From the sequence record OR352954: a stretch of 64,000 bases of DNA; one strand, 5' to 3'. Origin of the DNA: Escherichia phage AV124. The notes below the pieces were generated by a model that saw only the letters and a list, made by a program, of their open reading frames with translations, had not been told where the DNA came from and searched no databases. The translations under genes and the position numbers were made by a program. Below are positions 1 through 62,443 of this stretch, piece by piece. Within the stretch, counting starts at the first letter, position 1. Each line of letters opens with the position of its first letter.

Positions 1-473
1 CCTTCTCATATGACCCTGAGACAGGTTTGTTTACTTGTATCAATCCTCTCGCTCGTCGTCATTTTGGTAAGGTTGCAGGCACAAAAAGGAAAGATGGGTA
101 TATACGCCTCGGTGTTAAGGTAAGCGGCAAGCTGAAAATGTTTCTCGCGCATAGGGTTGCCTGGGCTTTTTATCACGGTGTGTGGCCTGATGGCCTTATT
201 GACCATAAAGACTGGGACAGACAAAATAATAAAATAGACAATCTCAGGGTTGTTGACAAAAGCACAAATAATTATTATTATTCCCCTTGGAAAGGGAAGT
301 CACAGACAGGTTACAGGGGTGTTAGGATAGATAAAAGGAGAAATCCTCCCAGATATCAAGCTATTTTCTGCGACACTCATCTTGGGATGTTCTCTACAGC
401 AGAAGAGGCATATGCTTGCTATCAAAAGTATGTTATGAAGACACAGGAGATTATCGCAGATGCTGAAATATAA
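1..473 (+). CDS. HNH homing endonuclease with AP2-like C-terminal motif; 5' partial (start lies upstream of window)
   Basis: Reading frame open from window edge; 'HRVAWAFYHG...DHKDWDRQNNKIDNLR' HNH-type motif, 'GYRGV' AP2-like motif. Confidence 0.55.
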   Translation, partial: FSYDPETGLFTCINPLARRHFGKVAGTKRKDGYIRLGVKVSGKLKMFLAHRVAWAFYHGVWPDGLIDHKDWDRQNNKIDNLRVVDKSTNNYYYSPWKGKSQTGYRGVRIDKRRNPPRYQAIFCDTHLGMFSTAEEAYACYQKYVMKTQEIIADAEI

Positions 474-951
474 AGTTGGTGATTTGATTAAAGCTATTCA
501 AGATGGTGAAGTAAATGTTTTTGGTCATGGTTGTAATTGCTTTGTGACTATGGGTAGCGGGATCGCCCCGTTGATCAAAGAAGCATTCCCTAAGATGTAC
601 GCTGCCGACCTGAAAACTGAGAAGGGCGACAAGACCAAGCTGGGAACCTGTACAATGGCCTTTTTGAATGATGGGTCTCTCGTAGGATTTAATCTGTACT
701 CACAGTACGGTTATAATCGCCGCAAACAGGGTCTCAGGGACCTTGACTACAATGCCCTGTATGATTCAATGGTTGAAATGAAAAAGCTCTTACAGAGCTA
801 TACAGACGGCCCTATGGACACCTATCGAATCGGGTTCCCTAAACTAGGTGCTGGGCTTGCAGGGGGTGACTGGAATGTCATCGAAGCAATGATCAAATCA
901 ATCTTCTTTGATTGTGATGTAACTGTGTACATTCTGCCGGAGAAAAAGTGA
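460..951 (+). CDS. macro-domain (ADP-ribose binding/processing) protein
   Basis: 'GDLIKAIQDGEVNVFGHGCNCFVTMGSGIA' and 'IGFPKLGAGLAGG' resemble macro-domain Gly-rich loops (cf. YmdB/MacroD). Confidence 0.55.
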   Translation: MLKYKVGDLIKAIQDGEVNVFGHGCNCFVTMGSGIAPLIKEAFPKMYAADLKTEKGDKTKLGTCTMAFLNDGSLVGFNLYSQYGYNRRKQGLRDLDYNALYDSMVEMKKLLQSYTDGPMDTYRIGFPKLGAGLAGGDWNVIEAMIKSIFFDCDVTVYILPEKK

Positions 952-1120
952 TGACAGAAAAGAAAAACCTACACCCTGATACTGCATATGATCGTATTGT
1001 TGCGGCAATTCGTGCAATCGACCCGAAATTGGTAGACGCCCTTGACAGAAAGGATGCCCTCAACGATATTAATGATGCTTGCTATGAAGTTTTATGGCAA
1101 GATTGGATGGGGGATGATGA

Positions 1121-1330
1121 ATGATTGAACTTAAAGACGGCATGGTGGCCCACACCAAGAAGATCGACCTTCACGTTGGTAACACAGTGTTTACATACAA
1201 TGCACCACGAGGAAAGAGCTTTGTTGTTCTTCTACTTGGCGTAGAGAAGCCGGATGGTCAAGGAGAAGGTATTCAGATTGACGAATGGCTGAATAGTCGT
1301 GGCTGGAAGCTGGAGGGTCCTGATGAGTAA
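1121..1330 (+). CDS. hypothetical protein
   Basis: ORF track; start overlaps upstream gene. Confidence 0.3.
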   Translation: MIELKDGMVAHTKKIDLHVGNTVFTYNAPRGKSFVVLLLGVEKPDGQGEGIQIDEWLNSRGWKLEGPDE

Positions 1331-1541
1331 ATCGGTTTTTGTCATCTATGACACTGTTGACAAATGCCTCTGGAACCACAAAGCCAAGATTGGGTGGATT
1401 AGTTCCGGCGCGGCGAAGAACGCCTGGAATCTTGCCCACGCAACCTGGAGTGGGAAGCAGTATTTTGATGACCAGCAAAGATATGTAGTTCTTGAGCTTT
1501 CTGGCGGACACGTTAGTAAATTATTTGAGGAGAATAAATGA
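1323..1541 (+). CDS. hypothetical protein
   Basis: ORF with ATG at 1323 overlapping upstream stop (ATGAGTAA); translationally coupled small early gene. Confidence 0.3.
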   Translation: MSKSVFVIYDTVDKCLWNHKAKIGWISSGAAKNAWNLAHATWSGKQYFDDQQRYVVLELSGGHVSKLFEENK

Positions 1542-1894
1542 CCATGAATGAATCTGTAGATTCTGCAACCACCCCAATGATCGGTGGTAAGATTTACGCT
1601 GGCGTTATCATCAACGCCCGTCCGTTTGTGGAGGTATGGCCCCGTTGTATTTGTGGTTATCTGGCTGGCAAGGATCATCACAACCGAGGGTTTGATAATG
1701 GCCCTATTCGTACCTCCACGGTGCAAAGCCTGCTGCTGGAGAATGGTAAGCTATTCGCCATCACACTGAATAGCGCTTATCGCCTAGAATCTGTAGATCT
1801 GGCAGCTTTTCTTAATTGTCCTGGGTGGTTCGATGACCTTGATAATTTGATCACTCAGGCTGTAGCTCCTAAAAAGGGGGTGTCCATTGACTAA
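1538..1894 (+). CDS. hypothetical protein
   Basis: ORF track, 118 aa, start overlaps upstream stop. Confidence 0.4.
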   Translation: MTMNESVDSATTPMIGGKIYAGVIINARPFVEVWPRCICGYLAGKDHHNRGFDNGPIRTSTVQSLLLENGKLFAITLNSAYRLESVDLAAFLNCPGWFDDLDNLITQAVAPKKGVSID

Positions 1895-2930
1895 ACCAAT
1901 TAAATACCCAAGCACCGCACAGTTCCGTCAGGTTATCCGCACCATGCATGATAAACTGACGTTCGACGGTCTTGATGAAGAAGGCAATATCAAGCGTAAG
2001 GTTTTGCCACCGGACGCATACTTGATCCCGTACATTGGTACGGTTAAGCTCCACGGCACAAATGGTAGCGTGGTATTCCACTCTGAGGATGAAGTTGTCT
2101 TCCAGTCCAAAGAGCGTGTCGTTACTGTAGGTGACGATAACAATGGCTTCGCGGCTTTCATGTCTCGAAAAGACACCTCAGAGCTGCTTTCCCAGGTTAA
2201 ATACCTGTGTGAAGTCAATGAAGTTGAGTTCCAGTTCCCGGTTGAAATTGCTGGTGAATGGGCTGGTCGCGGCATTCAGAAAGGTGTTGCCATCACTGAA
2301 GTAGAGCCATTCTTTGCTATCTTCCGTGTGGCTGTAGGCCGGGATGAGGCGACGGATACCCTCAACTGGCTACCACCAACGTTCCAGTTTGGAATGGGAT
2401 TGCCGGATGCTCGTATCTACAGTATCCTTGACTTCGGTTACTGGATGGCTAATATCCCATTCAATGAGCCAGAACTTGTCCAGAATGACTTGGCAGAACT
2501 GACTCGTGAAGTGGAAAACAAATGCCCGGCAGGTAAGTTCTTTGGCGTAGAAGGTATCGGTGAAGGCATTGTCTGGTCTCCAAAAGATCCTGAGCTTTCT
2601 AAAATCTCTGGTCTGTGGTTTAAAGTCAAGGGTGATAAACATTCTGTATCCAAAGTTAAGACCCTGGCAGCGATCGACCCAGAACGCCTCGCAAGTATGC
2701 GTGAGTTCGTTGAGTACGCTGTGACGGAAGCACGTCTTGAGCAGGGTGTTAGCGAAGTCGGTCTTGACCAGACTAAGATTGGTGAATTCATTGGATGGAT
2801 TAACCGAGACATCAACAAGGAAGAGGGTGATGTTCTGGAAGCCAGCTCCATGACCATGAAAGATGTTGGTAAGTTTATCAGCAACAAAGCTCGTGCATGG
2901 TACATGACTCGTCTGAGTGAGGAGGGCTAA
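1887..2930 (+). CDS. ATP-dependent RNA ligase, Rnl2-like
   Basis: Nucleotidyltransferase motif I 'VKLHGTN' (cf. T4 Rnl2 KIHGTN), 'EGIVWSP' and 'FKVKG' downstream motifs; N-terminus 'KPIKYPS'; TTG start after GGGGG SD. Confidence 0.7.
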   Translation: MTKPIKYPSTAQFRQVIRTMHDKLTFDGLDEEGNIKRKVLPPDAYLIPYIGTVKLHGTNGSVVFHSEDEVVFQSKERVVTVGDDNNGFAAFMSRKDTSELLSQVKYLCEVNEVEFQFPVEIAGEWAGRGIQKGVAITEVEPFFAIFRVAVGRDEATDTLNWLPPTFQFGMGLPDARIYSILDFGYWMANIPFNEPELVQNDLAELTREVENKCPAGKFFGVEGIGEGIVWSPKDPELSKISGLWFKVKGDKHSVSKVKTLAAIDPERLASMREFVEYAVTEARLEQGVSEVGLDQTKIGEFIGWINRDINKEEGDVLEASSMTMKDVGKFISNKARAWYMTRLSEEG

Positions 2931-3112
2931 TGGCCCTCATTGTAGCCACAACGCGGTCTGTTGAAAAAAGACCTGGACATTCTTTCACCGAGTGTGATAC
3001 CTTGATTTTCGAAGATGAAGAACAGGGAAAAAAGTTTGTTAAAGATAACAAACAGTTTGTCTATAATGTCCAAAAAGCGAGGGTCATTAAAAATGGTGAG
3101 ACCAGAACCTAA
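2930..3112 (+). CDS. hypothetical protein
   Basis: ORF track, 60 aa, ATG overlaps ligase stop. Confidence 0.25.
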   Translation: MALIVATTRSVEKRPGHSFTECDTLIFEDEEQGKKFVKDNKQFVYNVQKARVIKNGETRT

Positions 3113-3278
3113 GTTTAAAGTCGGGCAGACAGTCAAAGATACCTGGAGCGGCAAGGTTGGCCCTATTTCCACCATGTACTTTTCAGAAGGAGACCAGTAC
3201 AACAAGGCAGAATGGGCATATTCTATAGACCATATCGGGTGGTTATTCCATCCAGAGTCTGACTTGGAGTCGGTGTAA
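3093..3278 (+). CDS. hypothetical protein
   Basis: ATG at 3093 in frame of track ORF 3015..3278. Confidence 0.25.
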   Translation: MVRPEPKFKVGQTVKDTWSGKVGPISTMYFSEGDQYNKAEWAYSIDHIGWLFHPESDLESV

Positions 3279-3697
3279 TGGGTCTTCGTGAATACTTAGC
3301 AGTCAAATTAAAACATGCAAAGGGGCAATCTATGGTTAAAGTGAATGGTAATACCATCACGATCAACGGGAATACCGTCGTTAATGGTGACATCATTGGT
3401 GGAGACTTGAGTATTTCTGCAAATGGGGATAAAATCCTCATCAACGGAAAAGAGGTCTATACCACTTCTGATAAAAACATTACCGTAGTCATCCACGGAA
3501 ATACAGGAAGCATAAACACCACATCTGGTGGTGTGAAGGTGTATGGCACAGCAGGTAATGTTAAGACTGTTTCTGGTGATGTCCGTATCGAAACAGGGTC
3601 ACTTGCAGATGTGACTACCGTCTCAGGAGATGTTATAGCAGAAACCATTGAAGGTAATGTGAAAACAGTTTCAGGAGATGTTTCTCACCGTCGTTGA
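3278..3697 (+). CDS. beta-solenoid repeat protein (DUF4097/bactofilin-like repeats)
   Basis: Tandem degenerate repeats 'VKTVSGDV' / 'GNTITINGNTVVNGD'; alternative start ATG 3332 with AAGGGG SD. Confidence 0.4.
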   Translation: MGLREYLAVKLKHAKGQSMVKVNGNTITINGNTVVNGDIIGGDLSISANGDKILINGKEVYTTSDKNITVVIHGNTGSINTTSGGVKVYGTAGNVKTVSGDVRIETGSLADVTTVSGDVIAETIEGNVKTVSGDVSHRR

Positions 3698-3739
3698 TAT
3701 ACAGCCCCATTATGGGGCTTTTTAATTTGGAGTGTAAAT

Positions 3740-4270
3740 TTGAAATTGAAAAATATGATTTTGGCAACCGCCTGTATCCTTTCTCTGACTACCACACCTG
3801 TCTTAGCCAAAGAAAGTGTAAAGAAGCCCAAAGTTATCCATCTTTGTAAGAAGGATGACACAGCGGTAAACATTTTAGCCTGCAACATGTACAAAGAAGC
3901 TCGTGGAGAGAGTGATTCCGGGTTAATGTCGATCGCATTCGTAACTTTGAATCGTAAGGATAACGATAAGTACCCTGGAACAGTAAAGAAGATCGTCTAC
4001 CAGCCCGGACAATTCTCCTGGACATCTTCAGGAACAACGTTTAAAGTCTATGAAAAGGATCGCTGGGAGAAGGCACAAGAGTTTGCAAAAGTTCTGATCA
4101 AGATTCATAAACAAAACAGGGTCGTCTACGATGCTCTGGACATAACACATGGAGCAACCCACTACCATTCACGAAAAGTAAAACCCTACTGGACAAAGGC
4201 CATGCTACGCACAGTCAGGATCGATAACCATATCTATTATAAAGAGAAAGAAGATTCTCAGGGGGCATGA
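3740..4270 (+). CDS. secreted SleB-like cell wall hydrolase (signal peptide)
   Basis: N-terminal 'MKLKNMILATACILSLTTTPVLA' signal peptide; 'YKEARGESDSG...VTLNRKD...IVYQPGQFSW' resembles Hydrolase_2/SleB catalytic domain. Confidence 0.55.
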   Translation: MKLKNMILATACILSLTTTPVLAKESVKKPKVIHLCKKDDTAVNILACNMYKEARGESDSGLMSIAFVTLNRKDNDKYPGTVKKIVYQPGQFSWTSSGTTFKVYEKDRWEKAQEFAKVLIKIHKQNRVVYDALDITHGATHYHSRKVKPYWTKAMLRTVRIDNHIYYKEKEDSQGA

Positions 4271-4274
4271 ACTC

Positions 4275-4430
4275 ATGAAGAAATTCTTAGCAATATTTGT
4301 TTGCATTACCCCTTTGTGTGTGATATTGTCACTGTCACAGCCCATATATTGGGAACAAATTTGTGGAGCATACGCAATAGGTATGGCTACAGCGGCCTTT
4401 AGACTAAATACAAACAACTGCAAAAAGTAG
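4275..4430 (+). CDS. small membrane protein (51 aa)
   Basis: ATG 4275 overlapping hydrolase stop; hydrophobic N-terminus 'MKKFLAIFVCITPLCVILSL'. Confidence 0.3.
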   Translation: MKKFLAIFVCITPLCVILSLSQPIYWEQICGAYAIGMATAAFRLNTNNCKK

Positions 4431-4439
4431 GAGAAGTAG

Positions 4440-6431
4440 ATGATAATCGAGCGTAATGAGAAGAAGGTAGAAGTTAGTACCAACGTCAAACGCTATCAAG
4501 CTGGTATCGCGATCAATGCTGAAACTTTCAGTATCTTGATCGATGGTATTTATGAGGACAAGATCCTTGCTGCCTGTCGTGAACCCCTGTTCAATGCGGT
4601 AGATGCACACACAGAAGCCGGATGCCGGGACAAACCGATTATCATCCACTCCCCAACGGACTTGGAACCGTGGTATTCTGTCAAGGATGGTGGTATTGGG
4701 ATGGACTTTGACATGGTTACCCAGACCTTCATGATGCTGGGATCGTCCACTAAACGTGAATCCAACGATCTGATCGGTGCGAAAGGTATTGGTTCCAAGG
4801 CCCCGTTCACCGTTACGGACATGTTCAGTGTCATCTCTATCAAAGATGGTACTAAAACTGTGTACTCTGTTCATAAAGACCAAGGTATTCCTGAGGTTGT
4901 TCCTCTTCACGAGTCTAAAACCATAGAAGAAAATGGTGTTGAAATCAAATTCAACGTTGATCCGACAGAGACTGAGAAATACCGCCGTGCAATTATTAGT
5001 TGCCTGCGTTATGCTAAGTTCCCTTACGAGATCAATGACCCGTTTGTGACTTCATCTATTCGAGACCGTACCTACCCGGTGCAGTATACGTTCAAAGATG
5101 AAGAATCTGGTTGGATGCTGGAAATGTATTCGTCGGTATCTAACAACGCCGATAGCGTTGTGGTTATGGGACAACAGCCATACAAGTCAAAGTTTCTGAG
5201 CAATAACCCTGAATGGCCTTTAATGATGGTTTCCATTCCGATCGGGGATTGTGACGTAAACCCAGGACGTGAATGGACTATCGAGGGTAAGAATGACCGT
5301 GGATTCGAAGAGCGTCTTAAGGCATTTGTCCAGACTGCCCTTGATCGTCGTGGTGAAGAAATCTATCATGAACTCCGTAAGCTTTCAAATCTGGCTGATG
5401 TATTAGCTTATATGAAGCGGGTAGGTGGTTGGTTTGCCACTAAATATGGTGCAAAGTACATCGCAGAACTCTTCGCAGAGCACACTAACTCTTTGAATAT
5501 TAAAGAGTGCGTGACTTATAATGGTCATGGTGAAAAGCGGAGGATGGATAAGACATACTCTTACACAGACATGATGAACGGCTTCCACCTTGTCTACAAC
5601 GATATTAATAAACTTGTTCGTAGCCGTTGTAATCAGTTATTTGATGTAACAGGCAAGGCCGTCTATCTGACGGACAATCTTGGTGTGGCACAAATGTGTG
5701 ATAATCCATTCTTTGCGGGAATGGTCCATAAGCTGTCGGATTTGGAAAAGCGTCCAGCATCGAAATCGGATAAAAAGTATGGCGGATATAGCCTGTATGA
5801 ACCAGGGCATCCAGTATGGATCATTGAGCAGAGTGGAGCTATTAGGAAAACACGTATCTCCCGTGCGGAATTTGATGATATCAAATATGCCATGGTCTAT
5901 TCTGGTGGTCAGGCACGAGGGACTTGTGACCTTGGGTCTACGGCGTACCTTTCTAACCGTCATCAACCGGAGACCTTCTTGTCAGATCTTGGTATTGATG
6001 ATAAATTATACATCGTACCTTTAAACCGAGTGAGTTGGCTGGATGATGATGTTAGGATGATTACACAGGACGACCTTTATAAGGTTGCAAGTTCAAACCT
6101 GTTGGATTATCATCTTAGTCAGTTAACCAGACAGCGTGAGTATCGCTCTCTCTTGGACGACTTAAAGGGAATAGGTGTAGAGGTTGTCAAAGATCCTGAA
6201 TACAAGCAAAAGGTTAATATGGCTAACACTCTTTACAATATTAAAGGTTATTATAGTGCAGAAAGAACTGCGAAGAGAATCATCAATGGACGTATTCGTG
6301 TTGGGAAAAGTCTGATTAACAAGGTAAAAGAGCGTTACCCGTTGCTGAAACACGTCCCGATGCAACATTTTAACTCACCAGAGGTGGTTGAGTACCGTAA
6401 ATTTATTGATAGCAAAGGAGAAAATAAATGA
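4440..6431 (+). CDS. rIIA: rIIA-like protein (GHKL ATPase N-terminal domain)
   Basis: GHKL-type boxes 'FNAVDAH' and 'GIGMD...GAKGIGSKAPF'; 663 aa; immediately upstream of rIIB-like gene with ATGA overlap. Confidence 0.65.
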   Translation: MIIERNEKKVEVSTNVKRYQAGIAINAETFSILIDGIYEDKILAACREPLFNAVDAHTEAGCRDKPIIIHSPTDLEPWYSVKDGGIGMDFDMVTQTFMMLGSSTKRESNDLIGAKGIGSKAPFTVTDMFSVISIKDGTKTVYSVHKDQGIPEVVPLHESKTIEENGVEIKFNVDPTETEKYRRAIISCLRYAKFPYEINDPFVTSSIRDRTYPVQYTFKDEESGWMLEMYSSVSNNADSVVVMGQQPYKSKFLSNNPEWPLMMVSIPIGDCDVNPGREWTIEGKNDRGFEERLKAFVQTALDRRGEEIYHELRKLSNLADVLAYMKRVGGWFATKYGAKYIAELFAEHTNSLNIKECVTYNGHGEKRRMDKTYSYTDMMNGFHLVYNDINKLVRSRCNQLFDVTGKAVYLTDNLGVAQMCDNPFFAGMVHKLSDLEKRPASKSDKKYGGYSLYEPGHPVWIIEQSGAIRKTRISRAEFDDIKYAMVYSGGQARGTCDLGSTAYLSNRHQPETFLSDLGIDDKLYIVPLNRVSWLDDDVRMITQDDLYKVASSNLLDYHLSQLTRQREYRSLLDDLKGIGVEVVKDPEYKQKVNMANTLYNIKGYYSAERTAKRIINGRIRVGKSLINKVKERYPLLKHVPMQHFNSPEVVEYRKFIDSKGENK

Positions 6432-7663
6432 GCAATCTTTTTAAATCCCGTGCAGATGCTCGTGTTTGTGCTGCAAGTCGTGGTATGAAAGTTGTGGACC
6501 GTGGTGTATCTCCGGCGGTCCTGGCAGAGGGGCGTTGGATGGTTGTCCCCAAAGACAGTATTGGTGCTTCCCCGGAAAAGACGATTTCCTTCGATATGGA
6601 AACTTACCCTGCGCCAACTGCTTCTATGTTCTTTGCGAGTCGGGGAGAAGCCCGAGCATTCTCTAAGACTGTACAGAATGCGAAGATTATCGATCATGCA
6701 AAGACAACAGCAGGACATGACAAAGAGGAGGGGGTTGTCAAGGACCTTGGCAAGCGTGGTAAGCGCTGGGAAGTGGTGTTCGTAGTTTCTGATGTAGAAG
6801 TGAGCATTACTGTTCCTCAGCTTCCAGAACCTACACCTGTGCCTATTAAGATTTCGGTTGTTGATGACACGAAAGCTGATCCCATTGTCATCATGACACC
6901 AGGCAACGTTTCCATCACACTTCCCGATGGAACTATTCATACTCTGGGCAGTAACAGCGAAATCTTTAACGACGTTGGTATGTTACTGTTAAACAACAAG
7001 ATCGACGAAGCCGTAGCTCTTATTGAGGCGGGAATCGCTGCAAAAGCTGAGGTGGCAATCGATCTTGGACCGGATATGAAGCTACTCGACGGTGTTCTAT
7101 ACTGGCACGGCATCAAACAAGAAAGCGGTATTGCTCGCCGTATTGTTTCGGATATCGAGACCGGGAAGTTCGATAACCGTTATGTTGAGTTCATGCGTAA
7201 ACTGATGCTCAACCCTTCTTACAAATCGGTTGAAATGCTGTACGACTTCCTGGAGCATAACAAGTTTGAGATCCTGGAGAATGGCAACATCTTGGCCTAC
7301 AAGGGGCTTAAACGCACTGAGAATGGTCCTCGTGACTGGTTCACAGGCTTGGTCCCTAACTGGGCTAACACCACCGTCACGATGCCAAGAAACATGGTTG
7401 AAGATGACCCAACCAAAGCTTGTAGTCAAGGGCTGCACATCGCTTCCAAGGAATATGCCCGCGATTATGGCAATGTGGTTGAGGTTTCTGTTGACCCGGC
7501 AGACATTGTTAGCGTACCATATAACTACAATAACAAGAAATGCCGATGCTGCCGCTATGAAGTATTGACAGGAAAAGAAAAGCCAGCAGGTGCTCCTGAT
7601 GTTATTGTTGTGGGTGTAAGGGGTGCTATCCTGGACGAAATTTATCTCGATAAGGAGGATTAA
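6428..7663 (+). CDS. rIIB: rIIB-like protein
   Basis: Position directly after rIIA with start/stop overlap; C-terminal 'CSQGLHIASKEYARDYG...VDPADIVSVPYNYN' resembles rIIB family as I recall it. Confidence 0.55.
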   Translation: MSNLFKSRADARVCAASRGMKVVDRGVSPAVLAEGRWMVVPKDSIGASPEKTISFDMETYPAPTASMFFASRGEARAFSKTVQNAKIIDHAKTTAGHDKEEGVVKDLGKRGKRWEVVFVVSDVEVSITVPQLPEPTPVPIKISVVDDTKADPIVIMTPGNVSITLPDGTIHTLGSNSEIFNDVGMLLLNNKIDEAVALIEAGIAAKAEVAIDLGPDMKLLDGVLYWHGIKQESGIARRIVSDIETGKFDNRYVEFMRKLMLNPSYKSVEMLYDFLEHNKFEILENGNILAYKGLKRTENGPRDWFTGLVPNWANTTVTMPRNMVEDDPTKACSQGLHIASKEYARDYGNVVEVSVDPADIVSVPYNYNNKKCRCCRYEVLTGKEKPAGAPDVIVVGVRGAILDEIYLDKED

Positions 7664-8970
7664 TGTCTGATTTTGGAGTGGGAACGGAAGAGGCCTTAGG
7701 TGCTATCATTGAAGGCAAAAACGTTTTCATTACGGGGCCGGGGGGCAGTGGCAAGAGCCATCTGATCAAAACAATCCAATCCCTGTATCCAAGTTCAACA
7801 TTAACAGTGGCCCCGACAGGGGTCGCTTCACTTAATGTTGATGGAATGACAACTCATCGAGCTTTCGGGTTATCAATGGGGATAGCCACAGAAGATGATG
7901 GTAAGACAGTAAAAACTAAACCTAAAAAACTTTTAAAAAGCAAATCTCTTGAGCGTATCATTATTGATGAAATATCTATGGTCCGAGCCGACAAATTGTG
8001 GGAAATGGATCAGAAACTGCGTGTTGCGAGAAGGGAGCCTAAGAAAGCTTTCGGCGGTCTTCAGGTCATCATGTTTGGTGATTTCTTTCAGAACCCTCCC
8101 GTTCTGACAGAGTCTGAAGAAAACGCTTACTTTGAACTCCACAGCACAGAATTATCTTGTTTCTCAGACACTTGGGGAGAGATAAGTCCATACCCTGTGC
8201 TTCTTGACAAGATTTATCGTCAAAACAGCGTGCATTTTTCATCGCTATTGAATCATATGAGGAAAGGCGAGCGTATTGATGAAATAGTTAAATTCCTCAA
8301 CAATCAGTGCTATTCAAAGGGTGCAGCACTGAATGCGATTACCCTAACTTCAACTAATGCCGCAGCGGAGCGTATCAACAAAAAGCATTACGATCAGATA
8401 CCGGGTGAAGAGGTTATTTACAAAGCCTCCAAAACAGGAGATTTTGCCCAGCGTCCAGTTGCTGAGAGTCTACACCTCAAGGTAGGGACTCGTGTCATGA
8501 TCACCGTTAATGATCAGAATCCAGATGAAGACGGTCCTAAATTTGTCAACGGAACGAGGGGTATTATCAAGGCTCTCGGAAAATTTTCGGTAGATGTTGA
8601 GCTGGAAAATGGTAAGATCGTAGAGATCGAAAAGAATGTGTGGGAGAATGTAGAATACTTCCCAAGAAAGGTTATCAAGAATGGTAAGACTGAAGAGGAA
8701 TTGGAAAAGATTGTTGTTGGAACATACACAAACTTGCCCATTCGCCTTGGTTATGCAGTGACCATTCACAAAGCTCAAGGCTTGACTTTGCCAGAGGTTA
8801 ATATAGACTTTGGTTATGGAGCTTTTGCTCCTGGGATGGCCTATGTTGCCTTTAGCAGGGCCACTTCTACAAAAGGTTTAAGATTGTTGCGTCCGGTTAA
8901 AGAACGTGATATTATCGTAGACCAAAGAATTGTTAAATTCTACAAAGACACATTCCCAGGAAAATTTTAG
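7663..8970 (+). CDS. SF1B DNA helicase, Dda/RecD-like
   Basis: Walker A 'GPGGSGKS', 'IIIDEISM', 'VTIHKAQG', 'AYVAFSRA' motifs in Dda/RecD order. Confidence 0.75.
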   Translation: MSDFGVGTEEALGAIIEGKNVFITGPGGSGKSHLIKTIQSLYPSSTLTVAPTGVASLNVDGMTTHRAFGLSMGIATEDDGKTVKTKPKKLLKSKSLERIIIDEISMVRADKLWEMDQKLRVARREPKKAFGGLQVIMFGDFFQNPPVLTESEENAYFELHSTELSCFSDTWGEISPYPVLLDKIYRQNSVHFSSLLNHMRKGERIDEIVKFLNNQCYSKGAALNAITLTSTNAAAERINKKHYDQIPGEEVIYKASKTGDFAQRPVAESLHLKVGTRVMITVNDQNPDEDGPKFVNGTRGIIKALGKFSVDVELENGKIVEIEKNVWENVEYFPRKVIKNGKTEEELEKIVVGTYTNLPIRLGYAVTIHKAQGLTLPEVNIDFGYGAFAPGMAYVAFSRATSTKGLRLLRPVKERDIIVDQRIVKFYKDTFPGKF

Positions 8971-8979
8971 GAGAAAATA

Positions 8980-9438
8980 ATGGCATCATATTCTCGTCTG
9001 GAGCTGGTAGAAAAGTTCCGCAAAGAACTTGAAGTATGGAATCAATGGCAGGTTCCTCGCTCTGAAAAAGCTATGGACACTACCCACATCCAAATGGCCT
9101 CTCTTGACGAGATGATGTCTGCTTATGGGTATGTCCCTCGTCGTCTTTCGAACTTCCCAGAAGTTAAAGATGGTCGCTTTGGCTACCAGCTTGCATTCCC
9201 TCGATGTAAAAAGATTTGTCGCCCATTCTTTATCTCGTTACAGGATGCAGTTAGCATCCATAATGGCAATGGGTACAAGGGGAATCCATTCCGTAGGTTG
9301 GGGGATCGCATGAGTTTTGCTCTACAGAACCGTATTGTTGAGCAGGTGGCGGTTCAGAGGGATAAGTCTTTGGAAGGTGGTATCAAATCAACTAAGAAGT
9401 GGATTAAGTTCTATGAGGAGAACAAAAATGCAGGTTGA
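8980..9438 (+). CDS. hypothetical protein
   Basis: ORF track, 152 aa. Confidence 0.4.
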   Translation: MASYSRLELVEKFRKELEVWNQWQVPRSEKAMDTTHIQMASLDEMMSAYGYVPRRLSNFPEVKDGRFGYQLAFPRCKKICRPFFISLQDAVSIHNGNGYKGNPFRRLGDRMSFALQNRIVEQVAVQRDKSLEGGIKSTKKWIKFYEENKNAG

Positions 9439-9610
9439 AGATTTTACCGACTTGAGTAAGGTAACAACAGAAAAGCTAATGAAACTCCGTGATATCGCTC
9501 AAGATTATCACGATGAGATGCAGCAAGCTGAACTGGAAGCGTGGGAAAGACTCCAAGATATAATTCATGAAATTGTCAAGAGGGCGAAGAATGTTCAAAC
9601 GTCTAATTAA
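9428..9610 (+). CDS. hypothetical protein
   Basis: ATG 9428 (MQVEDF...) in track ORF frame; coiled-coil-like. Confidence 0.3.
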   Translation: MQVEDFTDLSKVTTEKLMKLRDIAQDYHDEMQQAELEAWERLQDIIHEIVKRAKNVQTSN

Positions 9611-9905
9611 CTGGCTCTTTGCCAAAGAGGATGACACCACAGAAAATGAAGTTCGGGTATTCGACTTCACAGAGCAAGGGCCTGGTCATGACATCACTAT
9701 GCGAGTAATCAATGATGGTGAATATGCAGAGGCAGTGGTTGCCCTGAAACTTGCGGATCTGCCGCCTGCGGTTGGTGACTTCATTGTCGTAGTTTTAGAT
9801 GGTGTCCACAATACTTTTGTGGTAGAAACAGTGGAAGGCGTGAGCCTGACAGTTACTAAATTGACCCTGACTCGTTATGAAGGTGCAGAAGATGAAACAT
9901 CGTGA
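9591..9905 (+). CDS. hypothetical protein
   Basis: ATG 9591 inside track ORF 9567..9905. Confidence 0.3.
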   Translation: MFKRLINWLFAKEDDTTENEVRVFDFTEQGPGHDITMRVINDGEYAEAVVALKLADLPPAVGDFIVVVLDGVHNTFVVETVEGVSLTVTKLTLTRYEGAEDETS

Positions 9906-10374
9906 AAATATTTGTAAGCTTATTGATGATTTGAAGCGCATCGCAAGACAAGCAACACCAGGTAAGTGGTGGATAGATTCACATGGCCATGCTATGGTTG
10001 CATTTTCAACGGAAGATGCTGGCATGGAAACAGTGTTTGTGACAGACGGGAATATGGGTCCGGTTGTGCGCCATGAGAACACAGGTAATCTCTCGGCTTG
10101 GCGCAATGATATGGATGCAACATACATTGCGACTGCCTGCCCTCAGAATGTGCTGGCAGTTCTGGAATATCTAAGTTCTGGTGCTAACGCGTGGAATACC
10201 ATAAGCACTTATATGGAAACTCGCCTGCATGGTGATGCAGCCGCTTTACGTAATGATGTAAGCCGGAAGTTGTTTGATGACGGTTGTCATAGTGCAGCAA
10301 TCCATGCAATTCAGTTTATCGAGGCACTGATTGACCAGAATATTGAATTAAAGGCCGAACTGGAGTCTAAATGA
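9892..10374 (+). CDS. hypothetical protein (Ead/Ea22-like motifs)
   Basis: 'ATPGKWW' and 'CPQNVLAVLEYL' resemble motifs common in small lambdoid early proteins. Confidence 0.3.
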   Translation: MKHRENICKLIDDLKRIARQATPGKWWIDSHGHAMVAFSTEDAGMETVFVTDGNMGPVVRHENTGNLSAWRNDMDATYIATACPQNVLAVLEYLSSGANAWNTISTYMETRLHGDAAALRNDVSRKLFDDGCHSAAIHAIQFIEALIDQNIELKAELESK

Positions 10375-10607
10375 TAAAAGATTGTTTTGGGAATGAGGCG
10401 AGAGTTGGCGACAAGATCGCCTTCTCTCAAGGCAATGCTGGAGCAAAAAAGTGGGAATTCGGGGAGATTACCCGGATAACCGATAAGTGCATATATTTTC
10501 ATGGTCGCGCCGGGGGAATGTTCCGTGACTGGCGTGATGATACCGAGCTTCGCCGTGGAGAAGGCGCGTTCGTAATTAATTTAGAAGCGAGAGGACTTAA
10601 TGAGTAA
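10371..10607 (+). CDS. hypothetical protein
   Basis: ORF track. Confidence 0.35.
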   Translation: MIKDCFGNEARVGDKIAFSQGNAGAKKWEFGEITRITDKCIYFHGRAGGMFRDWRDDTELRRGEGAFVINLEARGLNE

Positions 10608-10884
10608 AGCCGCACTTCCTGTAGAGATCGAATTCAGTTATGACCACCCTACTGCTGGTGTCGTCACCGTCGAAGCACTTTATTCTGTGATGGAAGGCGA
10701 CCGTAACAGTCGTGAAAGCGATGTAGATTACAACGGTTTCCAGGATCTGGAGTATTATGCTGTATTCTCTGGAGATAAACAGATCTACGTTGACATTCCA
10801 GATGATGTCCTATACCATCATTTACGCGAGTATATCCGCAATCTTGAAATTGTAGGTTGCTTCCAGGAAGAGGAGGATTTTTAA
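10600..10884 (+). CDS. hypothetical protein
   Basis: ORF track. Confidence 0.35.
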   Translation: MSKAALPVEIEFSYDHPTAGVVTVEALYSVMEGDRNSRESDVDYNGFQDLEYYAVFSGDKQIYVDIPDDVLYHHLREYIRNLEIVGCFQEEEDF

Positions 10885-11102
10885 TGAAACACGAAGTTAA
10901 AGTCGTTGAATTCGAATTCGGTAAACACAGAGGTCCAGACTATGTGGCTAAAGTGTTGGCAGAACATCTTGATGAAGGATATACTATCGTAGGGCAATCT
11001 GAAAGTGCTAGATATCTGACCTACACTCTAGTTAAAATTATCCCAATTTCCATGACGGGTACGGTAACAAATGCCGATCACCAAGGGGTCAGTTTCCACT
11101 AA
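10884..11102 (+). CDS. hypothetical protein
   Basis: ATG 10884 (MKHEVKV...) within track ORF 10857..11102. Confidence 0.3.
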   Translation: MKHEVKVVEFEFGKHRGPDYVAKVLAEHLDEGYTIVGQSESARYLTYTLVKIIPISMTGTVTNADHQGVSFH

Positions 11103-11112
11103 GGGAGGCCGT

Positions 11113-11805
11113 TTGAAGAAGAAAGTGATCATTCTTTATGATTACACTTCGGTCATGGCGCGTCCTTGGTTAGAGGCTGGCTATGAAGTTTGGACTTTTG
11201 ATGGTCAACATTCACCAGGAGTCACCCGCGAGGGTGACCTTGTTAAAGTCGGGATGTGGTTCTTCCACGACAAGACCGTTCAACAAGCTCAAGAGATCAA
11301 AGAAATGGTTGGTGACAATGTTCACATCGTCTTTGGTTTCCCGGAATGTACTCACCTGACCAATGCGGGTTCACGTCATTGGGCTAAGAAAAGAGCAGCA
11401 AACCCTAACTTCCAGAAGGAAGCAATGGAACTTTGCCTATTGGTAGAGAAGGTTGGAGATTTATATAATGTTCCGTGGGCCTTTGAAAACCCTGTCGGTG
11501 TTCTTTCTTCAATGTATCGAAAACCTGATTACATGTTTGATCCTAAGGATTACGGCGGGTATCTCCCAGCCAATGATATACACCCACTATATCCGCACGT
11601 ATACCCTCCTCAGGACGCGTATAACAAGAAGACGTGTATTTGGATGGGTAATGGCGCAAAACAGCCTGACAAGCTTCCTGTGAAGGAATTGTACAAGGAC
11701 AATCCGGGCTGGAAGAAGTGTGGTGGCAAATCCACCAAGACTAAAAATATTCGTAGTTGTACACCTCGCGGTTTTGCGGAGGCGTTTTACCAGAAAAATA
11801 AATGA
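11113..11805 (+). CDS. compact C5-cytosine methyltransferase-fold protein (no obvious target-recognition domain)
   Basis: 'FGFPECTHLTNAG' (cf. motif IV GGPPCQ..S.AG), 'ENPVG' (motif VI ENV), C-terminal 'TPRGFAEAF'; TTG start 11113 after AAGGGAGG. Confidence 0.4.
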   Translation: MKKKVIILYDYTSVMARPWLEAGYEVWTFDGQHSPGVTREGDLVKVGMWFFHDKTVQQAQEIKEMVGDNVHIVFGFPECTHLTNAGSRHWAKKRAANPNFQKEAMELCLLVEKVGDLYNVPWAFENPVGVLSSMYRKPDYMFDPKDYGGYLPANDIHPLYPHVYPPQDAYNKKTCIWMGNGAKQPDKLPVKELYKDNPGWKKCGGKSTKTKNIRSCTPRGFAEAFYQKNK

Positions 11806-13877
11806 GAGGGATAATGGGAAATGGACCGGATTGGGCGGCGTATCGCAAAGGCGGCAATGAAAACCCAAGAGCAGGTTTTGGAAGTAATCGCGGAGGCAAG
11901 TTGAGTTATAGTAACAATCGAGTAGAAGAGACCCTGGAATCAGTGCTGTCTGGCACCCGCATCATGGCTGTTCCCGAAATGAGTCTCTCTCTTGAAGCAG
12001 CACAGTATTTTAAGATCCGTTCTGCGGTATCCCCGGCGGATGGTATCACCCCGGTAGCAACATACTTGCCATATTATGATAAGTATGGGAAACTGACAGG
12101 ATTCAAGAAACGTGACTGGACGCTACAAAAGGAGAAGACGGGACACTTTTCAACTGTTGGCGCTGTGAAGGCATCATCTCAGTTCTTCGGGCAGCATGAA
12201 GCCTCTATGGGTGTTGGTCGTAAACAGATCAATATCGTAGAAGGTGAAGGTGACGTATGCGCAGCATGGCAGGCAGCGTATGAGATGGTCAAGGCTATGT
12301 CTACCAGCCCAAAAGCCAGTAAAGGCGTTAAGGACTGGGCCGATAGCATCCTAAAAGGTATCCGTCATATCCAGAACGACGAAGACATTGGCGGTCTTCC
12401 GACACTACCTTATGTCGGATTAAACTGTGGTACTGCAAACGCTGTTGATACTTTCGCAAACAACGAAAAGTTCATTCGCAGTTATGAGAAGGTAGTCTTA
12501 GGTTTTGATAACGATGAAGCAACAGCGTTAGAAAAAGAAAAGAAAATAAAGAAAGGTAAAGAAGCAACCGACGATGTAGCCAGCTTCCTGCTGTCAGAAA
12601 ACATTTACGTTGTGCGATATCCCAACGAGCGTAATGACCCGGATGGCTTTAAAGACATTCGTGACATGTTTGATGCTGGTAAGATACGTGAACTTTACGC
12701 AATGTTCACCAAAGCAGACGATCGCTATGTTCCTGATAAATTGATCGGTCTTAAGGATATCACCATTGAAAACCTTCGTAAGAAGAAAAAAGATGGTGTT
12801 CCATTACCGGGTATGCCGGGGCTTTACAACCTTACCAGAGGCCCTCGTACTGGTGAGCTTTGGACATTGACCGGGCCGTCTGGTGGTGGTAAGTCTACAA
12901 TCTCTCGTAAGATTGAATACGCAATCATTGATTATCTTCGTGATATGTCAATTCCCCGCCTCGATGGCTGGACCGAGAGTGAGAAAGTAGCTATCATCCG
13001 GCTGGAAGAGGATGAAGAAGAGTCTGTAAACAGCTTGTATGCTGAAGAGCTGAAGGTGGACCCTAAGGCATTTGTTGCTGACCCGGAGCAGTTCTTAACC
13101 GAAGAGCAACACCTTGAAATTCACCAACGCTGGATTAGGGAAGATAAGATTAAGATCTTCGATCACTTTGGTTCTATCCCGACAGACCAGCTTATTCAGA
13201 AACTTAAGCAGATGGTGTTCCTTGATGGTTGTAAATGGATCATCCTCGATCACCTGTCGATGGTAATCTCTGGTCTTAAGTCCGACAACGAACGTCGAGA
13301 CCTTGATAACATCATGACCGAGCTGGCGGCTTTCTGTAAGAAGTACGATGTTTTCATCTTATCAATCAGTCACATGAAGCGTAAAGAACTTCAGCTTCCG
13401 AAAGATAAAGATGGGAATCTATTACCGTTCTGGTATCCGGTCCGTAAAGAAGACCTGCGCGGTTCTGCGGCCCTTGAACAACTCTCATGGGTGGTTCTGG
13501 GTGTTGAACCAGAAGAGCTTCCTGACCGCTCCCGTGGACGTGTACGTATCGTGGTGCTGAAGAACCGCCCACACAAAAAACTGGGTATCGCTGATACAAT
13601 GGTTATGGATGACAACGGGCAGTTCTCCGATGCTTCCGGCTGGGAATGGGAAGATGGGATGTTCAAGCTTAATGGTGAAGTTATGCTTCGTCCTCAGAGT
13701 CTGATCCATCAACTCTCTCTGGAAACTCCGGTTGGAAAGGTAAATGTTCCGGCACCTGAGTATAAGCCAACCATCGATCTTGATAGGACACCAGTCCCTA
13801 CTCTTGATCCTGACGATGATACGCCTTTCGCCCCGATAGGATTGCAATACGCAAAACATGCAATTTATGTAATTTAA
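11802..13877 (+). CDS. primase-helicase, T7 gp4-like (TOPRIM + DnaB-like helicase)
   Basis: TOPRIM 'NIVEGEGDVCAAW', 'VVLGFDNDEA'; helicase Walker A 'GPSGGGKST', 'IILDHLSM'. Confidence 0.8.
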   Translation: MRGIMGNGPDWAAYRKGGNENPRAGFGSNRGGKLSYSNNRVEETLESVLSGTRIMAVPEMSLSLEAAQYFKIRSAVSPADGITPVATYLPYYDKYGKLTGFKKRDWTLQKEKTGHFSTVGAVKASSQFFGQHEASMGVGRKQINIVEGEGDVCAAWQAAYEMVKAMSTSPKASKGVKDWADSILKGIRHIQNDEDIGGLPTLPYVGLNCGTANAVDTFANNEKFIRSYEKVVLGFDNDEATALEKEKKIKKGKEATDDVASFLLSENIYVVRYPNERNDPDGFKDIRDMFDAGKIRELYAMFTKADDRYVPDKLIGLKDITIENLRKKKKDGVPLPGMPGLYNLTRGPRTGELWTLTGPSGGGKSTISRKIEYAIIDYLRDMSIPRLDGWTESEKVAIIRLEEDEEESVNSLYAEELKVDPKAFVADPEQFLTEEQHLEIHQRWIREDKIKIFDHFGSIPTDQLIQKLKQMVFLDGCKWIILDHLSMVISGLKSDNERRDLDNIMTELAAFCKKYDVFILSISHMKRKELQLPKDKDGNLLPFWYPVRKEDLRGSAALEQLSWVVLGVEPEELPDRSRGRVRIVVLKNRPHKKLGIADTMVMDDNGQFSDASGWEWEDGMFKLNGEVMLRPQSLIHQLSLETPVGKVNVPAPEYKPTIDLDRTPVPTLDPDDDTPFAPIGLQYAKHAIYVI

Positions 13878-24722: not shown

Positions 24723-25424
24723 ATGATGAATCTATACGTAAAAACAACCTGGACAGACTTCTATGGTTGGACAAAACTCGAATACCTTTGGCTTCTAATC
24801 TGTTCTGCATCCATTGCAACGGTCTCTATCGTTACAGGTGGTACGGTGGTGGAGTTTATTTCCTCCGTCACAGGCATCGTCGGTGCGATTCTGGTTGCGA
24901 AAGGTAAACTTTCCAGCTACTATTGGGGCTTCATTGCCACGGTTCTGTATGCATATATCTCTTTCACGTACAAGTTGTACGGTGAGACGATTATGTACAC
25001 CCTGTTGTTCACCCCCATGCAGGTCATTGGCGGGGTGATCTGGGCGCGTAAGTTAACCGTCTCTGCGGATGGTGAGCGTGCGGATGTCATAAAGAAATAT
25101 CTGACCACAAAACAGCGCTGGATTGTTGGTATCGGGACATTGGTGACGATCGGATTATACGCCGAGTTCGTTAGCCTATTGAAAGGAAGTATGCCGGGTC
25201 TAGATTCTGCGACAGCAATCCTGTCAGTTCTAGCAACCTACCTGATGATGGTTCGTTATGCAGAACAATGGCTGATTTGGCTACTGGTGAACACTGTTGC
25301 AATTGTTATGTGGGTACAAGCTACGATTCATCATCAAGGAGCTGGTTCTGCAATTTTGGCTATGTGGGTCACATTCTGGCTCAACTCTCTTTATGGTTGG
25401 TATAAGTGGAGAAAGAATGGCTAG
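24723..25424 (+). CDS. pnuC: nicotinamide riboside transporter PnuC-like
   Basis: ATG 24723 after AGGAG; polytopic membrane protein ~233 aa with PnuC-like C-terminal 'WLNSLYGWYKW'. Confidence 0.7.
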   Translation: MMNLYVKTTWTDFYGWTKLEYLWLLICSASIATVSIVTGGTVVEFISSVTGIVGAILVAKGKLSSYYWGFIATVLYAYISFTYKLYGETIMYTLLFTPMQVIGGVIWARKLTVSADGERADVIKKYLTTKQRWIVGIGTLVTIGLYAEFVSLLKGSMPGLDSATAILSVLATYLMMVRYAEQWLIWLLVNTVAIVMWVQATIHHQGAGSAILAMWVTFWLNSLYGWYKWRKNG

Positions 25425-25538
25425 AAAACTAGTGTACGGGGTGGGCGAGTGATTCAACGCTTTACGGAAGTTCTAGACGGTATACTGGAAGACATTTCAA
25501 ATTTACGTGAAACAACCAATTTTGGAGGGGGGTAATAT

Positions 25539-25910
25539 ATGATTGGATTTTGGGAATGGTTGACCATGCACAACAACTGGGTTCCTGGCGTTATCATGTA
25601 TGCAATGATGTTGCTATGGGCTTTGGTCATCGCTTTCCGTAGTACGTGGAAAGGGTATGTTGTTGCAATCGTCTTGATGGCTGGTGTTGGTGGTACACTG
25701 TTTAACTTCCTCAGCACATACCTTGACGGTTATGGAATGTATCAGCGCCATTATACTACTTGCGCAAAGCCAGAGGCTGTGGTATCATTCTATGTGTTTG
25801 ATGCAAAGAAAGAGCGCTGTTATAAACCTGTTGTTGGATTTGCACCTGTTGATGATAATCAGGTAAAGACTCTGACACCGAAACAAATGGAGACTGGAGA
25901 ATGGCTTTAA
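25539..25910 (+). CDS. membrane protein, unknown function
   Basis: ORF track; 2-3 hydrophobic helices. Confidence 0.4.
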   Translation: MIGFWEWLTMHNNWVPGVIMYAMMLLWALVIAFRSTWKGYVVAIVLMAGVGGTLFNFLSTYLDGYGMYQRHYTTCAKPEAVVSFYVFDAKKERCYKPVVGFAPVDDNQVKTLTPKQMETGEWL

Positions 25911-28713: not shown

Positions 28714-29141
28714 TAATGAAAAGATGTTCTAATTGTGGGGCTGAAAAGCCCCTTGAACAATTTCAGATCAGGAGGGCTTCTAAGGATGGATATACCGCAT
28801 CGTGCAAGATTTGTCTTAAGGAACGCGACCGAATCAGGGACCAAGATCCTGAACGTAAAGCAATGAAAGAACGATACGTTAAAGGTATCGGAAGAGAAGC
28901 GGCAGCACGAGCAAAGCGGAAGTATATCGAGAAGAATCCGAAGAAGAGATCTGTGCATATAAAAACAGGTAATGCGATCCGTGACGGCAAGATATTTAAA
29001 CAGCCTTGTGAAGTTTGCGGAAGTGAAAATGTACAAGCTCATCATTGTGATTACGATAAACCTTTAGAGGTTATGTGGCTATGTCCTATTCATCATGAAG
29101 AGTGGCACAGGCAATACGGCGAGGCAAAGAACGCTATATAA
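28710..29141 (+). CDS. HNH endonuclease (Cys-rich, zinc-binding type)
   Basis: 'CSNCG...CKIC' and 'CEVCGSENVQAHHCDYDKPLEVMWLCPIHHEEWH'. Confidence 0.65.
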   Translation: MIMKRCSNCGAEKPLEQFQIRRASKDGYTASCKICLKERDRIRDQDPERKAMKERYVKGIGREAAARAKRKYIEKNPKKRSVHIKTGNAIRDGKIFKQPCEVCGSENVQAHHCDYDKPLEVMWLCPIHHEEWHRQYGEAKNAI

Positions 29142-29147
29142 AAGAAA

Positions 29148-29172
29148 AGGCTCCCAAATGGGAGCCTTTTTT
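29148..29172. terminator. bidirectional intrinsic terminator between convergent gene blocks
   Basis: AAGGCTCCC-AAAT-GGGAGCCTT hairpin flanked by A-run on one side and T-run on the other. Confidence 0.6.
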
Positions 29173-29173
29173 A

Positions 29174-35695: not shown

Positions 35696-35787
35696 TTCGT
35701 CCTCCTTTCAGGACCATGATTCTTTTGTATATTTTACCATACGCGGCAGTGTTTTGCAAATAAAGGGGAAGAAGCTACAAATGAAAA

Positions 35788-56040: not shown

Positions 56041-56105
56041 GACTGCATCCGTTTAGGTATTTTACCACATTATCTTAGCAAAATCAATGATAAAGGTTTG
56101 GATAA

Positions 56106-62379: not shown

Positions 62380-62443
62380 TTTCCCCGTTGATAGTTATTT
62401 TAACACCGTTTATTTTCTTTTGCAAGTTATTTCAGTGAGTTGC

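Follow-up and report, generated by a model that had tools for sequence, protein, structure and literature searches.

A 64,000-nucleotide stretch of the genome of Escherichia phage AV124 (record OR352954; hereafter the window) carries near its left end a gene for a hydrolase with a SleB-family catalytic domain and a predicted signal peptide, followed by a gene for a 51-aa membrane protein and by homologues of rIIA and rIIB. The initial annotation of this locus proposed that it could be the lysis module of the phage, or that it could serve an early cell-wall remodelling function. We favour, at about even probability, a reading in which the hydrolase is an accessory muralytic enzyme exported by the Sec pathway and a core gene of the Vequintavirinae, rather than the principal endolysin. 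This reading is preferred because a signal-less GH19 endolysin, together with spanin genes beside the terminase gene (TerL), exists elsewhere in Mydovirus genomes, because sister genera have differing validated endolysins and yet a SleB-like gene is found in all genera, and because the doubling of a canonical endolysin and an exported Hydrolase_2 protein recurs in phAPEC8-like, T5-like and PAK_P3/PAK_P4 phages. The toxicity of an orthologue, CB7_83, in E. coli also supports it, as do hairpins upstream of the gene, TTG or GTG start codons, and the early as well as late transcription of a distant homologue, PAK_P3 gp151.

Nucleotide comparison identifies the window as that of a Mydovirus phage, subfamily Vequintavirinae (rV5-like myophages); its region 3000-9000 aligns over the full length at 93-95% identity with the Klebsiella phages KP12 and VLCpiM5a, Proteus phage Mydo, and about 20 more Mydovirus records. 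Open reading frame (ORF) orientation and GC skew divide the window into a plus-strand block of replication and early-type genes, extending to ~31 kb, and a minus-strand structural block thereafter. An ORF check of the window placed the hydrolase, the small membrane protein, and the rIIA and rIIB homologues on the plus strand, and the features of the locus are as follows.

3703-3729, plus strand: intrinsic-terminator-like hairpin, AGCCCC-ATT-ATGGGGCT, with a T-rich run (terminator scan)
3740-4270, plus strand: hydrolase gene, 176 aa, TTG start; PF07486, PHROG 938
3740-3808, plus strand: signal peptide, aa 1-23, MKLKNMILATACILSLTTTPVLA, with n/h/c layout and a predicted signal peptidase I cut after Ala23
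4275-4430, plus strand: predicted 51-aa inner-membrane protein; PHROG 24442
4440-6431, plus strand: rIIA homologue, 663 aa; PHROG 612, PF13589
6428-7663, plus strand: rIIB homologue, 411 aa, its start overlapping the rIIA stop; PHROG 609
7663-8970, plus strand: PIF1-like helicase, the next gene in the string; PF05970, E=3.2e-29

The hydrolase is a SleB-family catalytic domain, as the initial annotation had suggested for this position. It matches Pfam Hydrolase_2 (PF07486) with 71 bits (cut-off 27; E=1.4e-19) over profile positions 1-100 of 100 and PHROG 938, labelled 'endolysin', at 2.9e-29, and at sequence level it also matches two SleB catalytic-domain structures of the PDB, 4F55 and 4FET. 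An AlphaFold model built with 25 homologues has a predicted local distance difference test score (pLDDT) of 88, with residues 31-170 confident and 1-30 low, and Foldseek returned 4F55 and 4FET as its sole significant structural neighbours (probability 1.00, target-normalised template-modelling scores 0.74-0.78). Glu53, which pairs with the first Glu of the SleB GESRGE motif, does not vary among the homologues (25/25). Domain, fold and catalytic Glu are all established. The mature domain is ~153 aa, basic, and ~17.5 kDa; its C36 and C48 occur together in 20 of the 25 homologues, a pairing that would fit folding in an oxidising periplasm.

The protein is not SleB proper, scoring 44.4 bits against the TIGR02869 equivalog cut-off of 236.5, and a Pfam scan found no PG_binding domain, leaving the catalytic domain as the only part in common with SleB. 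The Bacillus enzymes (4F55, 4FET) share with it the catalytic-domain fold and the catalytic Glu in an E-x-R-G-E motif, but the phage protein lacks their N-terminal peptidoglycan-binding domain, is predicted to be directed to a Gram-negative periplasm, and cannot have the muramic-δ-lactam cortex as its substrate. Near-identical genomes label the gene either 'endolysin', as in Mydo, or 'cell wall hydrolase SleB'.

The Sec-type signal peptide claimed in the initial annotation is well supported by comparison across several genera. The N-terminus consists of a basic n-region (MKLK), a hydrophobic h-region (NMILATACILSL) and a c-region (TTTPVLA, with predicted cleavage before KE), which is the layout of a signal peptidase I substrate. 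When the 25 homologues are aligned, position -3 is A, V, T or S in 24 and position -1 is A, S or G in 23, and the cleavage site is usually followed by Lys-Glu/Asp while the hydrophobic core varies freely. This pattern fits a signal peptidase I substrate and not a signal-arrest-release (SAR) anchor. Signal- or anchor-like N-terminal extensions are widespread, being present in at least 47 of 72 distinct homologues from viral contigs and absent from 12, and the hydrolase of T5-like phages has a signal too (MKAALLLVAALTFSFSSQA, predicted cut before S). A lipoprotein (signal peptidase II) signal was considered and rejected, since the sequence ATAC at residues 9-12 leaves an h-region of 7 residues and Cys12, the only Cys of the segment, occurs in just 12 of the 25 homologues. 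In VLCpiM5a (ON602736.1) the SleB-like coding sequence is annotated too short (25238-25621 of the stretch examined), with loss of the signal peptide.

Were the N-terminus instead that of a SAR endolysin, an uncleaved and weakly hydrophobic anchor would keep the enzyme inactive until the membrane is depolarised. The composition of the hydrophobic segment, in which 9 of 19 residues are Ala, Thr, Ser or Cys, is in keeping with this, and in the PAK_P4 homologue the N-terminus resembles an anchor and lacks an AXA motif. However, a cleavage motif of the type Pro-x-x-Ala followed by Lys-Glu is kept across genera despite the varying h-region, the h-region is just ~11 residues, and the typical Gly-rich stretch is missing. 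We rejected the SAR reading of the segment because it contains no Gly and because the AXA-type cleavage motif is conserved, and we regard a SAR endolysin as very improbable here.

The claim that the locus is the lysis module is weakened by the presence of a second endolysin. The initial annotation had named another endolysin elsewhere in the genome as a finding that would count against it, and a tblastn search found a GH19 endolysin without a signal, at no less than 98.9% identity, in each of the 32 Mydovirus-type records listed. This gene maps outside the window, ~48 kb from the SleB-like locus, and its product has no hydrophobic N-terminus; in Mydo it is CPT_Mydo_131, annotated 'endolysin' and located between glutaredoxin and PhoH. 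Its VLCpiM5a counterpart (ORF 29103-29702, minus strand, of the stretch examined) matches Glyco_hydro_19 and PHROG 181 'endolysin' (6e-71); in that record (ON602736.1) the GH19 endolysin was left unannotated. In the supplement to the KP12 paper, a GH19 protein adjoining PhoH is given as KP12.peg.198 (PMC9902359). The genes for i- and o-spanins adjoin the terminase gene in VLCpiM5a and in Mydo/KP12, also outside the window. A contiguous holin-endolysin-spanin cassette was not encountered: the spanins lie by TerL and the GH19 gene by PhoH, each tens of kb away.

Two further KP12 'endolysins', peg.279 and peg.319, were not counted as Mydovirus genes, because they match bacterial or prophage proteins best and map to short contigs (PMC9902359). 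Their apparent source is Mu-like and P2-like prophage contigs and not the 146-kb Mydovirus genome, of which peg.198 would be the only gene among the three. The protein cloned and purified as the KP12 endolysin is peg.319 (PMC9902359).

Within the window, the part of the late-region membrane cluster that was scanned holds membrane proteins of unknown function and tail-fibre-associated proteins and no other muralytic gene, in line with the initial annotation, which had recognised no endolysin there. Just past the tail-fibre genes, the ORF at 30949-31209 (minus strand; ~87 aa, PHROG 1322) has two hydrophobic segments by inspection and an acidic/basic C-terminal tail. From its sequence this membrane protein is a plausible candidate holin for the GH19 endolysin, and rV5 has a holin candidate of its own, gp129.

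The same doubling is seen in relatives near and far. SleB-like homologues occur in all genera of the subfamily, and the other enzyme differs between genera (PMC7344957). In PVP-SE1 the latter is gp146, a modular, thermostable endolysin that was purified and is active (PMC3352856); in an rV5-like phage it is LysECP26, a validated endolysin of the λ-lysozyme-like type (PMC9728275); rV5 gp89 is a Phage_lysozyme protein; and the canonical enzyme of CB7 is a T5-type M15 peptidase (PMC7344957). A canonical endolysin together with an additional Hydrolase_2 protein of exported type is also found in Phapecoctavirus (phAPEC8-like), T5-like, and PAK_P3/PAK_P4 phages. The small phages CW02 and PBC5 were dropped as possible cases with Hydrolase_2 only, their annotation being uninformative and the PBC5 domain lying within a 2,186-aa protein.

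The main rival explanation, which retains appreciable weight because of the pattern at the position downstream of the hydrolase and the core-gene status of the hydrolase itself, is a holin-type lysis pair. In this explanation, the locus is a genuine second or primary lysis cassette in which a SleB-like endolysin is coupled to a two-transmembrane-domain (two-TMD) holin of class II or pinholin type, and the holin collapses the membrane potential and sets the moment at which the exported enzyme turns lytic, as in Lys44 or SAR/pinholin pairs. The signal-peptide endolysin Lys44 of phage fOg44 and the SAR endolysins P1 Lyz and R21 are muralytic enzymes for which Sec, and not a holin hole, is the route to the wall, and some Sec-routed endolysins of this kind are paired with a small two-TMD protein (pinholins). 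They belong to other catalytic families, and the AV124 hydrolase differs further in that its signal looks cleavable, its host is Gram-negative, it has no apparent tether or latency, and its partner protein has no recognised holin homology.

The 51-aa protein that follows the hydrolase and precedes rIIA/rIIB, as the initial annotation described and as ORF coordinates and matches to PHROG 24442, 612 and 609 confirm, is central to this question. It has a strong TMD1 at aa 4-21, a WEQ loop, a weak, Ala/Gly-rich TMD2 at aa 29-42, and a basic C-terminus. In a 15-residue Kyte-Doolittle hydropathy window (KD15), TMD1 reaches up to 2.9 and TMD2 a maximum of 1.3, against 2.0 for TMD2 of the Seunavirus version; the C-terminal net charge of the small protein is +3 to +5. 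It matches PHROG 24442 (unknown function) at 1.3e-11, is conserved in Mydovirus and Seunavirus, and matched no holin family in Pfam, NCBIfam or the PHROG lysis families. Comparison with FENT2 gives nonsynonymous (pN) and synonymous (pS) values of 0.29 and 0.72, indicating purifying selection, and on sequence grounds the ORF is a real gene. Its profile, searched against 1.84 billion protein representatives, recovered just three clusters (51, 57 and 67 aa), and the one 67-aa member checked for context also lies between a Hydrolase_2 gene and an rIIA-like gene.

In Seunavirus the arrangement is closely similar. PVP-SE1 gp243, 'cell wall hydrolase SleB', is 82% identical to the AV124 hydrolase and is followed by a homologous small protein (gp244) and then rIIA/rIIB, and the terminator stem and TTG start are identical to those of the window. 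The Seunavirus small protein is 57 aa, with 41-47% identity to that of the window, and differs in its longer and more hydrophobic second segment and its RKARKR tail. For PVP-SE1 gene 244 (1497-1661 of the stretch examined) the annotated frame is not that of the conserved small membrane protein.

Other genera have different occupants at this position. In a group of Erwinia phages the hydrolase is followed by an unrelated 76-77 aa two-TMD protein and then a 660-aa ORF of rIIA size, and in Certrevirus by an unrelated 62-65 aa two-TMD protein. Three unrelated two-TMD proteins thus share the same slot, genus by genus. Homology among the small proteins of different genera was rejected, since they give no BLASTP alignment (the Erwinia-group and Seunavirus proteins, for example, have no BLASTP similarity) and no common profile, and we regard them as analogues by position. 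Vequintavirus and Avunavirus have no small ORF in the slot, their hydrolase gene running directly up to rIIA, and the small partner is dispensable in these two genera; in Certrevirus phage CR9 the small membrane ORF is disrupted. Outside the Vequintavirinae, a small transmembrane ORF adjoins the hydrolase in only 2 of 47 signal-bearing homologues. That unrelated small membrane proteins replace one another at this position speaks for a functional link and is a holin-like pattern. The pairing of hydrolase and small membrane protein proposed in the initial annotation hence gains from the three unrelated occupants, with the two partnerless genera counting against it.

Much of this arrangement has been described for Certrevirus. 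In 2020, CB7_83 was reported to resemble SleB, to have a signal peptide and, from data not shown, to be toxic to E. coli cells producing it; the overlapping CB7_82, a 65-aa two-TMD protein, was proposed as a class II holin (PMC7344957). Similar small proteins follow the hydrolase in other Certrevirus phages, where rIIA/rIIB are absent (PMC7344957). The AV124 hydrolase is ~49-53% identical to its Certrevirus orthologues and shares with CB7 the signal peptide, the two-TMD protein that follows, a helicase/primase block downstream, and a terminator-type hairpin upstream. Certrevirus differs in its ATG rather than TTG start and its lack of rIIA/rIIB at the locus, and CB7_82 has no basic C-terminus and is unrelated in sequence to the 51-aa PHROG 24442 protein.

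Several points speak for a lysis cassette: the labels given to PHROG 938 and by the Mydo annotators are both 'endolysin', the two TMDs of the small ORF are predicted to lie N-in/C-in and its C-terminus is basic, three unrelated proteins of this type fill one slot, CB7_82 has been put forward as a class II holin by those who described CB7 (PMC7344957), the hydrolase is a core gene with canonical endolysins swapped between genera, and CB7_83 is toxic in E. coli. Nonetheless, every relative has a canonical endolysin, two genera manage with an empty slot, the adjoining ORF is rare outside the subfamily, the TMD2 in the window is weak, and the small protein matched no holin family. A cleaved signal would moreover leave no membrane tether for release by a pinholin, a better holin candidate lies at 30949-31209 in the late region of the window, and rV5 has a candidate of its own, gp129. 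We consider the cassette possible, though on the unlikely side.

Signals upstream of the hydrolase bear on its expression. The TTG start, the same as that picked by the Mydo curators, lies 6 nt after a GGAG ribosome-binding site (3730-3733), and the GC-rich hairpin with its T-rich run, at 3703-3729, ends one base before that site (minimum free energy -11.7 kcal/mol, z = -2.1). We surveyed 10 Vequintavirinae loci from five or six genera and found an equivalent hairpin 5′ of the hydrolase in 10/10, against 10/133 other plus-strand genes there, the loci being related and not independent trials. The stems differ by genus (AGCCCC/GGGGCT, CCCCGC/GCGGGG, GGCTCAGT/ACTGGGCC), so that structure is conserved and sequence is not. 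An annotated terminator occupies the same place in PAK_P4. A TTG start is used in Mydovirus, Seunavirus, Avunavirus, the Erwinia-phage group, phAPEC8 and PD06, with GTG in Vequintavirus and ATG in Certrevirus. In phAPEC8 and PD06 (Stephanstirmvirinae) a sigma-70-like promoter, TTGCAA-N17-TATACT or TACAAT, lies between hairpin and ribosome-binding site; a sigma-70 promoter of its own was rejected for the Mydovirus gene, as there is no room between these two elements. Hairpins, starts and promoters together suggest attenuated expression, driven by host polymerase, of a product that may be harmful in excess.

A motif resembling the rV5 late promoter, TGGTAAAATA, occurs 15 times in the window with at most one mismatch (~5 expected; 0/100 shuffles reached 15), at 35730-35739, 56058-56067 and 62396-62405 (all minus strand) and 12 further sites, and exact copies lie 18-35 nt upstream of minus-strand late-gene starts. 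There is no copy within 1-12,000, hence none near the hydrolase, and none near the VLCpiM5a GH19 gene either. Absence near both genes gives no discrimination, and the motif was rejected as a test of timing.

Transcription data are available for the Pseudomonas myophage PAK_P3, whose gp151 is a distant homologue. Its normalised RNA counts are similar at 3.5 and 13 min (log2 fold change 0.62, not significant, classed as 'no change'), the putative endolysin gp28 is late (log2 fold change 3.3), and counts drop 3- to 9-fold from the upstream gp152 to gp151, across the hairpin. PAK_P3 gp151 and PAK_P4 gp154 resemble the AV124 hydrolase in their Hydrolase_2 domain, hydrophobic N-terminus and upstream terminator; they lie among ligase, helicase and nucleotide-metabolism genes, with a late endolysin cassette in addition. 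They differ from it in having ~30% identity, an N-terminus like an uncleaved anchor, and no adjoining small membrane ORF or rII.

The PAK_P3 authors suggested that gp151 is an auxiliary gene degrading wall material, which raises the alternative of an auxiliary metabolic function: turnover of peptidoglycan would free muropeptides or wall precursors for recycling, and lysis would not be the purpose. Expression of gp151 early as well as late is compatible with this, and in many phages the gene sits amid nucleotide-metabolism and replication genes. However, the proposal is purely speculative in its source, no recycling genes adjoin the hydrolase here, the gain from sacculus turnover would be small, and the mechanism overlaps with that of an accessory enzyme. 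We think a metabolic role quite unlikely.

The rII genes downstream were identified with confidence. The rIIA homologue matches PHROG 612 (4e-133) over residues 1-657, its full length, and has an N-terminal domain resembling GHKL-type ATPases (PF13589, E=6.3e-7); the rIIB homologue matches PHROG 609 (1.4e-63) and carries the label rIIB in Mydo and other relatives. The two are adjacent, with a 4 nt overlap. From hydrolase to helicase the successive spacings are 4, 9, -4 and -1 nt, and because gaps and overlaps are this small the string is very probably co-transcribed; primase and polymerase genes are also found in the surrounding plus-strand block, along with rII and the helicase. The initial annotation linked the hydrolase to rIIA/rIIB through their effect on lysis timing. 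The adjacency is real, but as far as the sequences indicate the link is one of conserved synteny with no functional tie beyond it, as Certrevirus keeps the hydrolase without rII at the locus.

Proximity to rII also suggests, by analogy, a factor for superinfection exclusion or competition, in which early remodelling of periplasmic peptidoglycan would hinder later phages. The analogy is with early exported envelope proteins of T-even and T5 phages – Imm, Sp and Llp. None of the computed evidence favours it, and an enzyme that cuts glycan strands should make penetration easier, not harder; of all the explanations considered it is extremely improbable.

If the hydrolase is the accessory enzyme that we favour, the locus might act as follows. 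A terminator directly upstream that is presumably leaky, and the TTG start, would keep the product at a low level, probably present from early or middle infection onward. The preprotein would be exported by Sec and its signal cut after Ala23, as the conserved AXA-type motif implies, and the mature domain, probably stabilised by a C36-C48 disulfide, would cleave peptidoglycan glycan strands via Glu53 in the manner of the lytic transglycosylase SleB. Being already periplasmic, the hydrolase would need no holin to reach its substrate, and it could thin or remodel the sacculus during infection and so aid the GH19 endolysin and spanins in finishing lysis. The 51-aa protein, encoded 4 nt downstream, would by its position be a co-expressed membrane partner or modulator, perhaps holin-like or a regulator.

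Several points weigh against the accessory enzyme. The experimental record on SleB-like proteins of the Vequintavirinae consists of one unpublished remark on toxicity, and diverse small two-TMD genes beside a muralytic gene are the classic holin-endolysin signature. Presence in all genera could equally mark an ancestral lysis enzyme. The Mydovirus GH19 gene, too, has early/middle-type genes around it, and the two enzymes hence cannot be told apart by where they lie in the genome; as the GH19 locus is outside the window, its presence in AV124 is deduced from ~94% identical relatives. The timing data come from a ~30% identical homologue in another phage group, with an N-terminus more like an anchor than a cleaved signal.

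Other features near the hydrolase were seen in passing. Directly 5′ of the terminator, the ORF at 3278-3697 (plus strand, 139 aa; PHROG 3163, unknown function) has short repeats (GNT.T.NG and VKTVSGDV) that suggest a beta-helix-like fold, and it keeps the same position in Seunavirus. The ORF at 460-951 (plus strand, 163 aa) has a borderline Macro-domain match (PF01661, 21.5 bits against a cut-off of 22), and is overlapped from upstream by a homing-endonuclease-like HNH_3 ORF at 27-473 (plus strand, E=5e-15). In KP12, KNP2 and BIS47 the counterpart of 3000-9000 has ~0.6-1.3 kb of extra DNA, which breaks the alignment into 2-3 pieces, and HNH endonuclease genes that the window lacks are annotated in these relatives.

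The arrangement is largely already described, since the signal peptide, toxicity and downstream class II holin candidate were published for CB7 (PMC7344957). What is new here is the hairpin in 10/10 loci, the TTG/GTG starts in most genera, the three unrelated slot proteins, and the use of the PAK_P3 gp151 timing. A bolder proposal, which we put forward as improbable in its entirety, is that the hydrolase and its exchangeable two-TMD partner constitute an ancestral, holin-independent 'sacculus-priming' or lysis system of the Vequintavirinae, with analogues in T5-like, phi92/phAPEC8-like and PAK_P-like phages. A leaky terminator and a weak start would hold its expression to a trickle, it would act from early infection, and the exchanged cytoplasmic endolysins would be later add-ons.

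For the AV124 window the value of these findings is mainly corrective, in that the locus is not to be read as the lysis cassette of the phage. Their reach is wider, as a Hydrolase_2 gene is present in more than 1,300 phage genomes of the collection, and in every large virulent phage group examined it is additional to a normal endolysin and has an export signal or hydrophobic N-terminus. If the hydrolase does weaken or remodel the wall during infection, lysis by phages of the type used therapeutically would not be purely an end-point, holin-gated event, and the hydrolase would be of practical interest as a muralytic module that is by nature directed to the periplasm.

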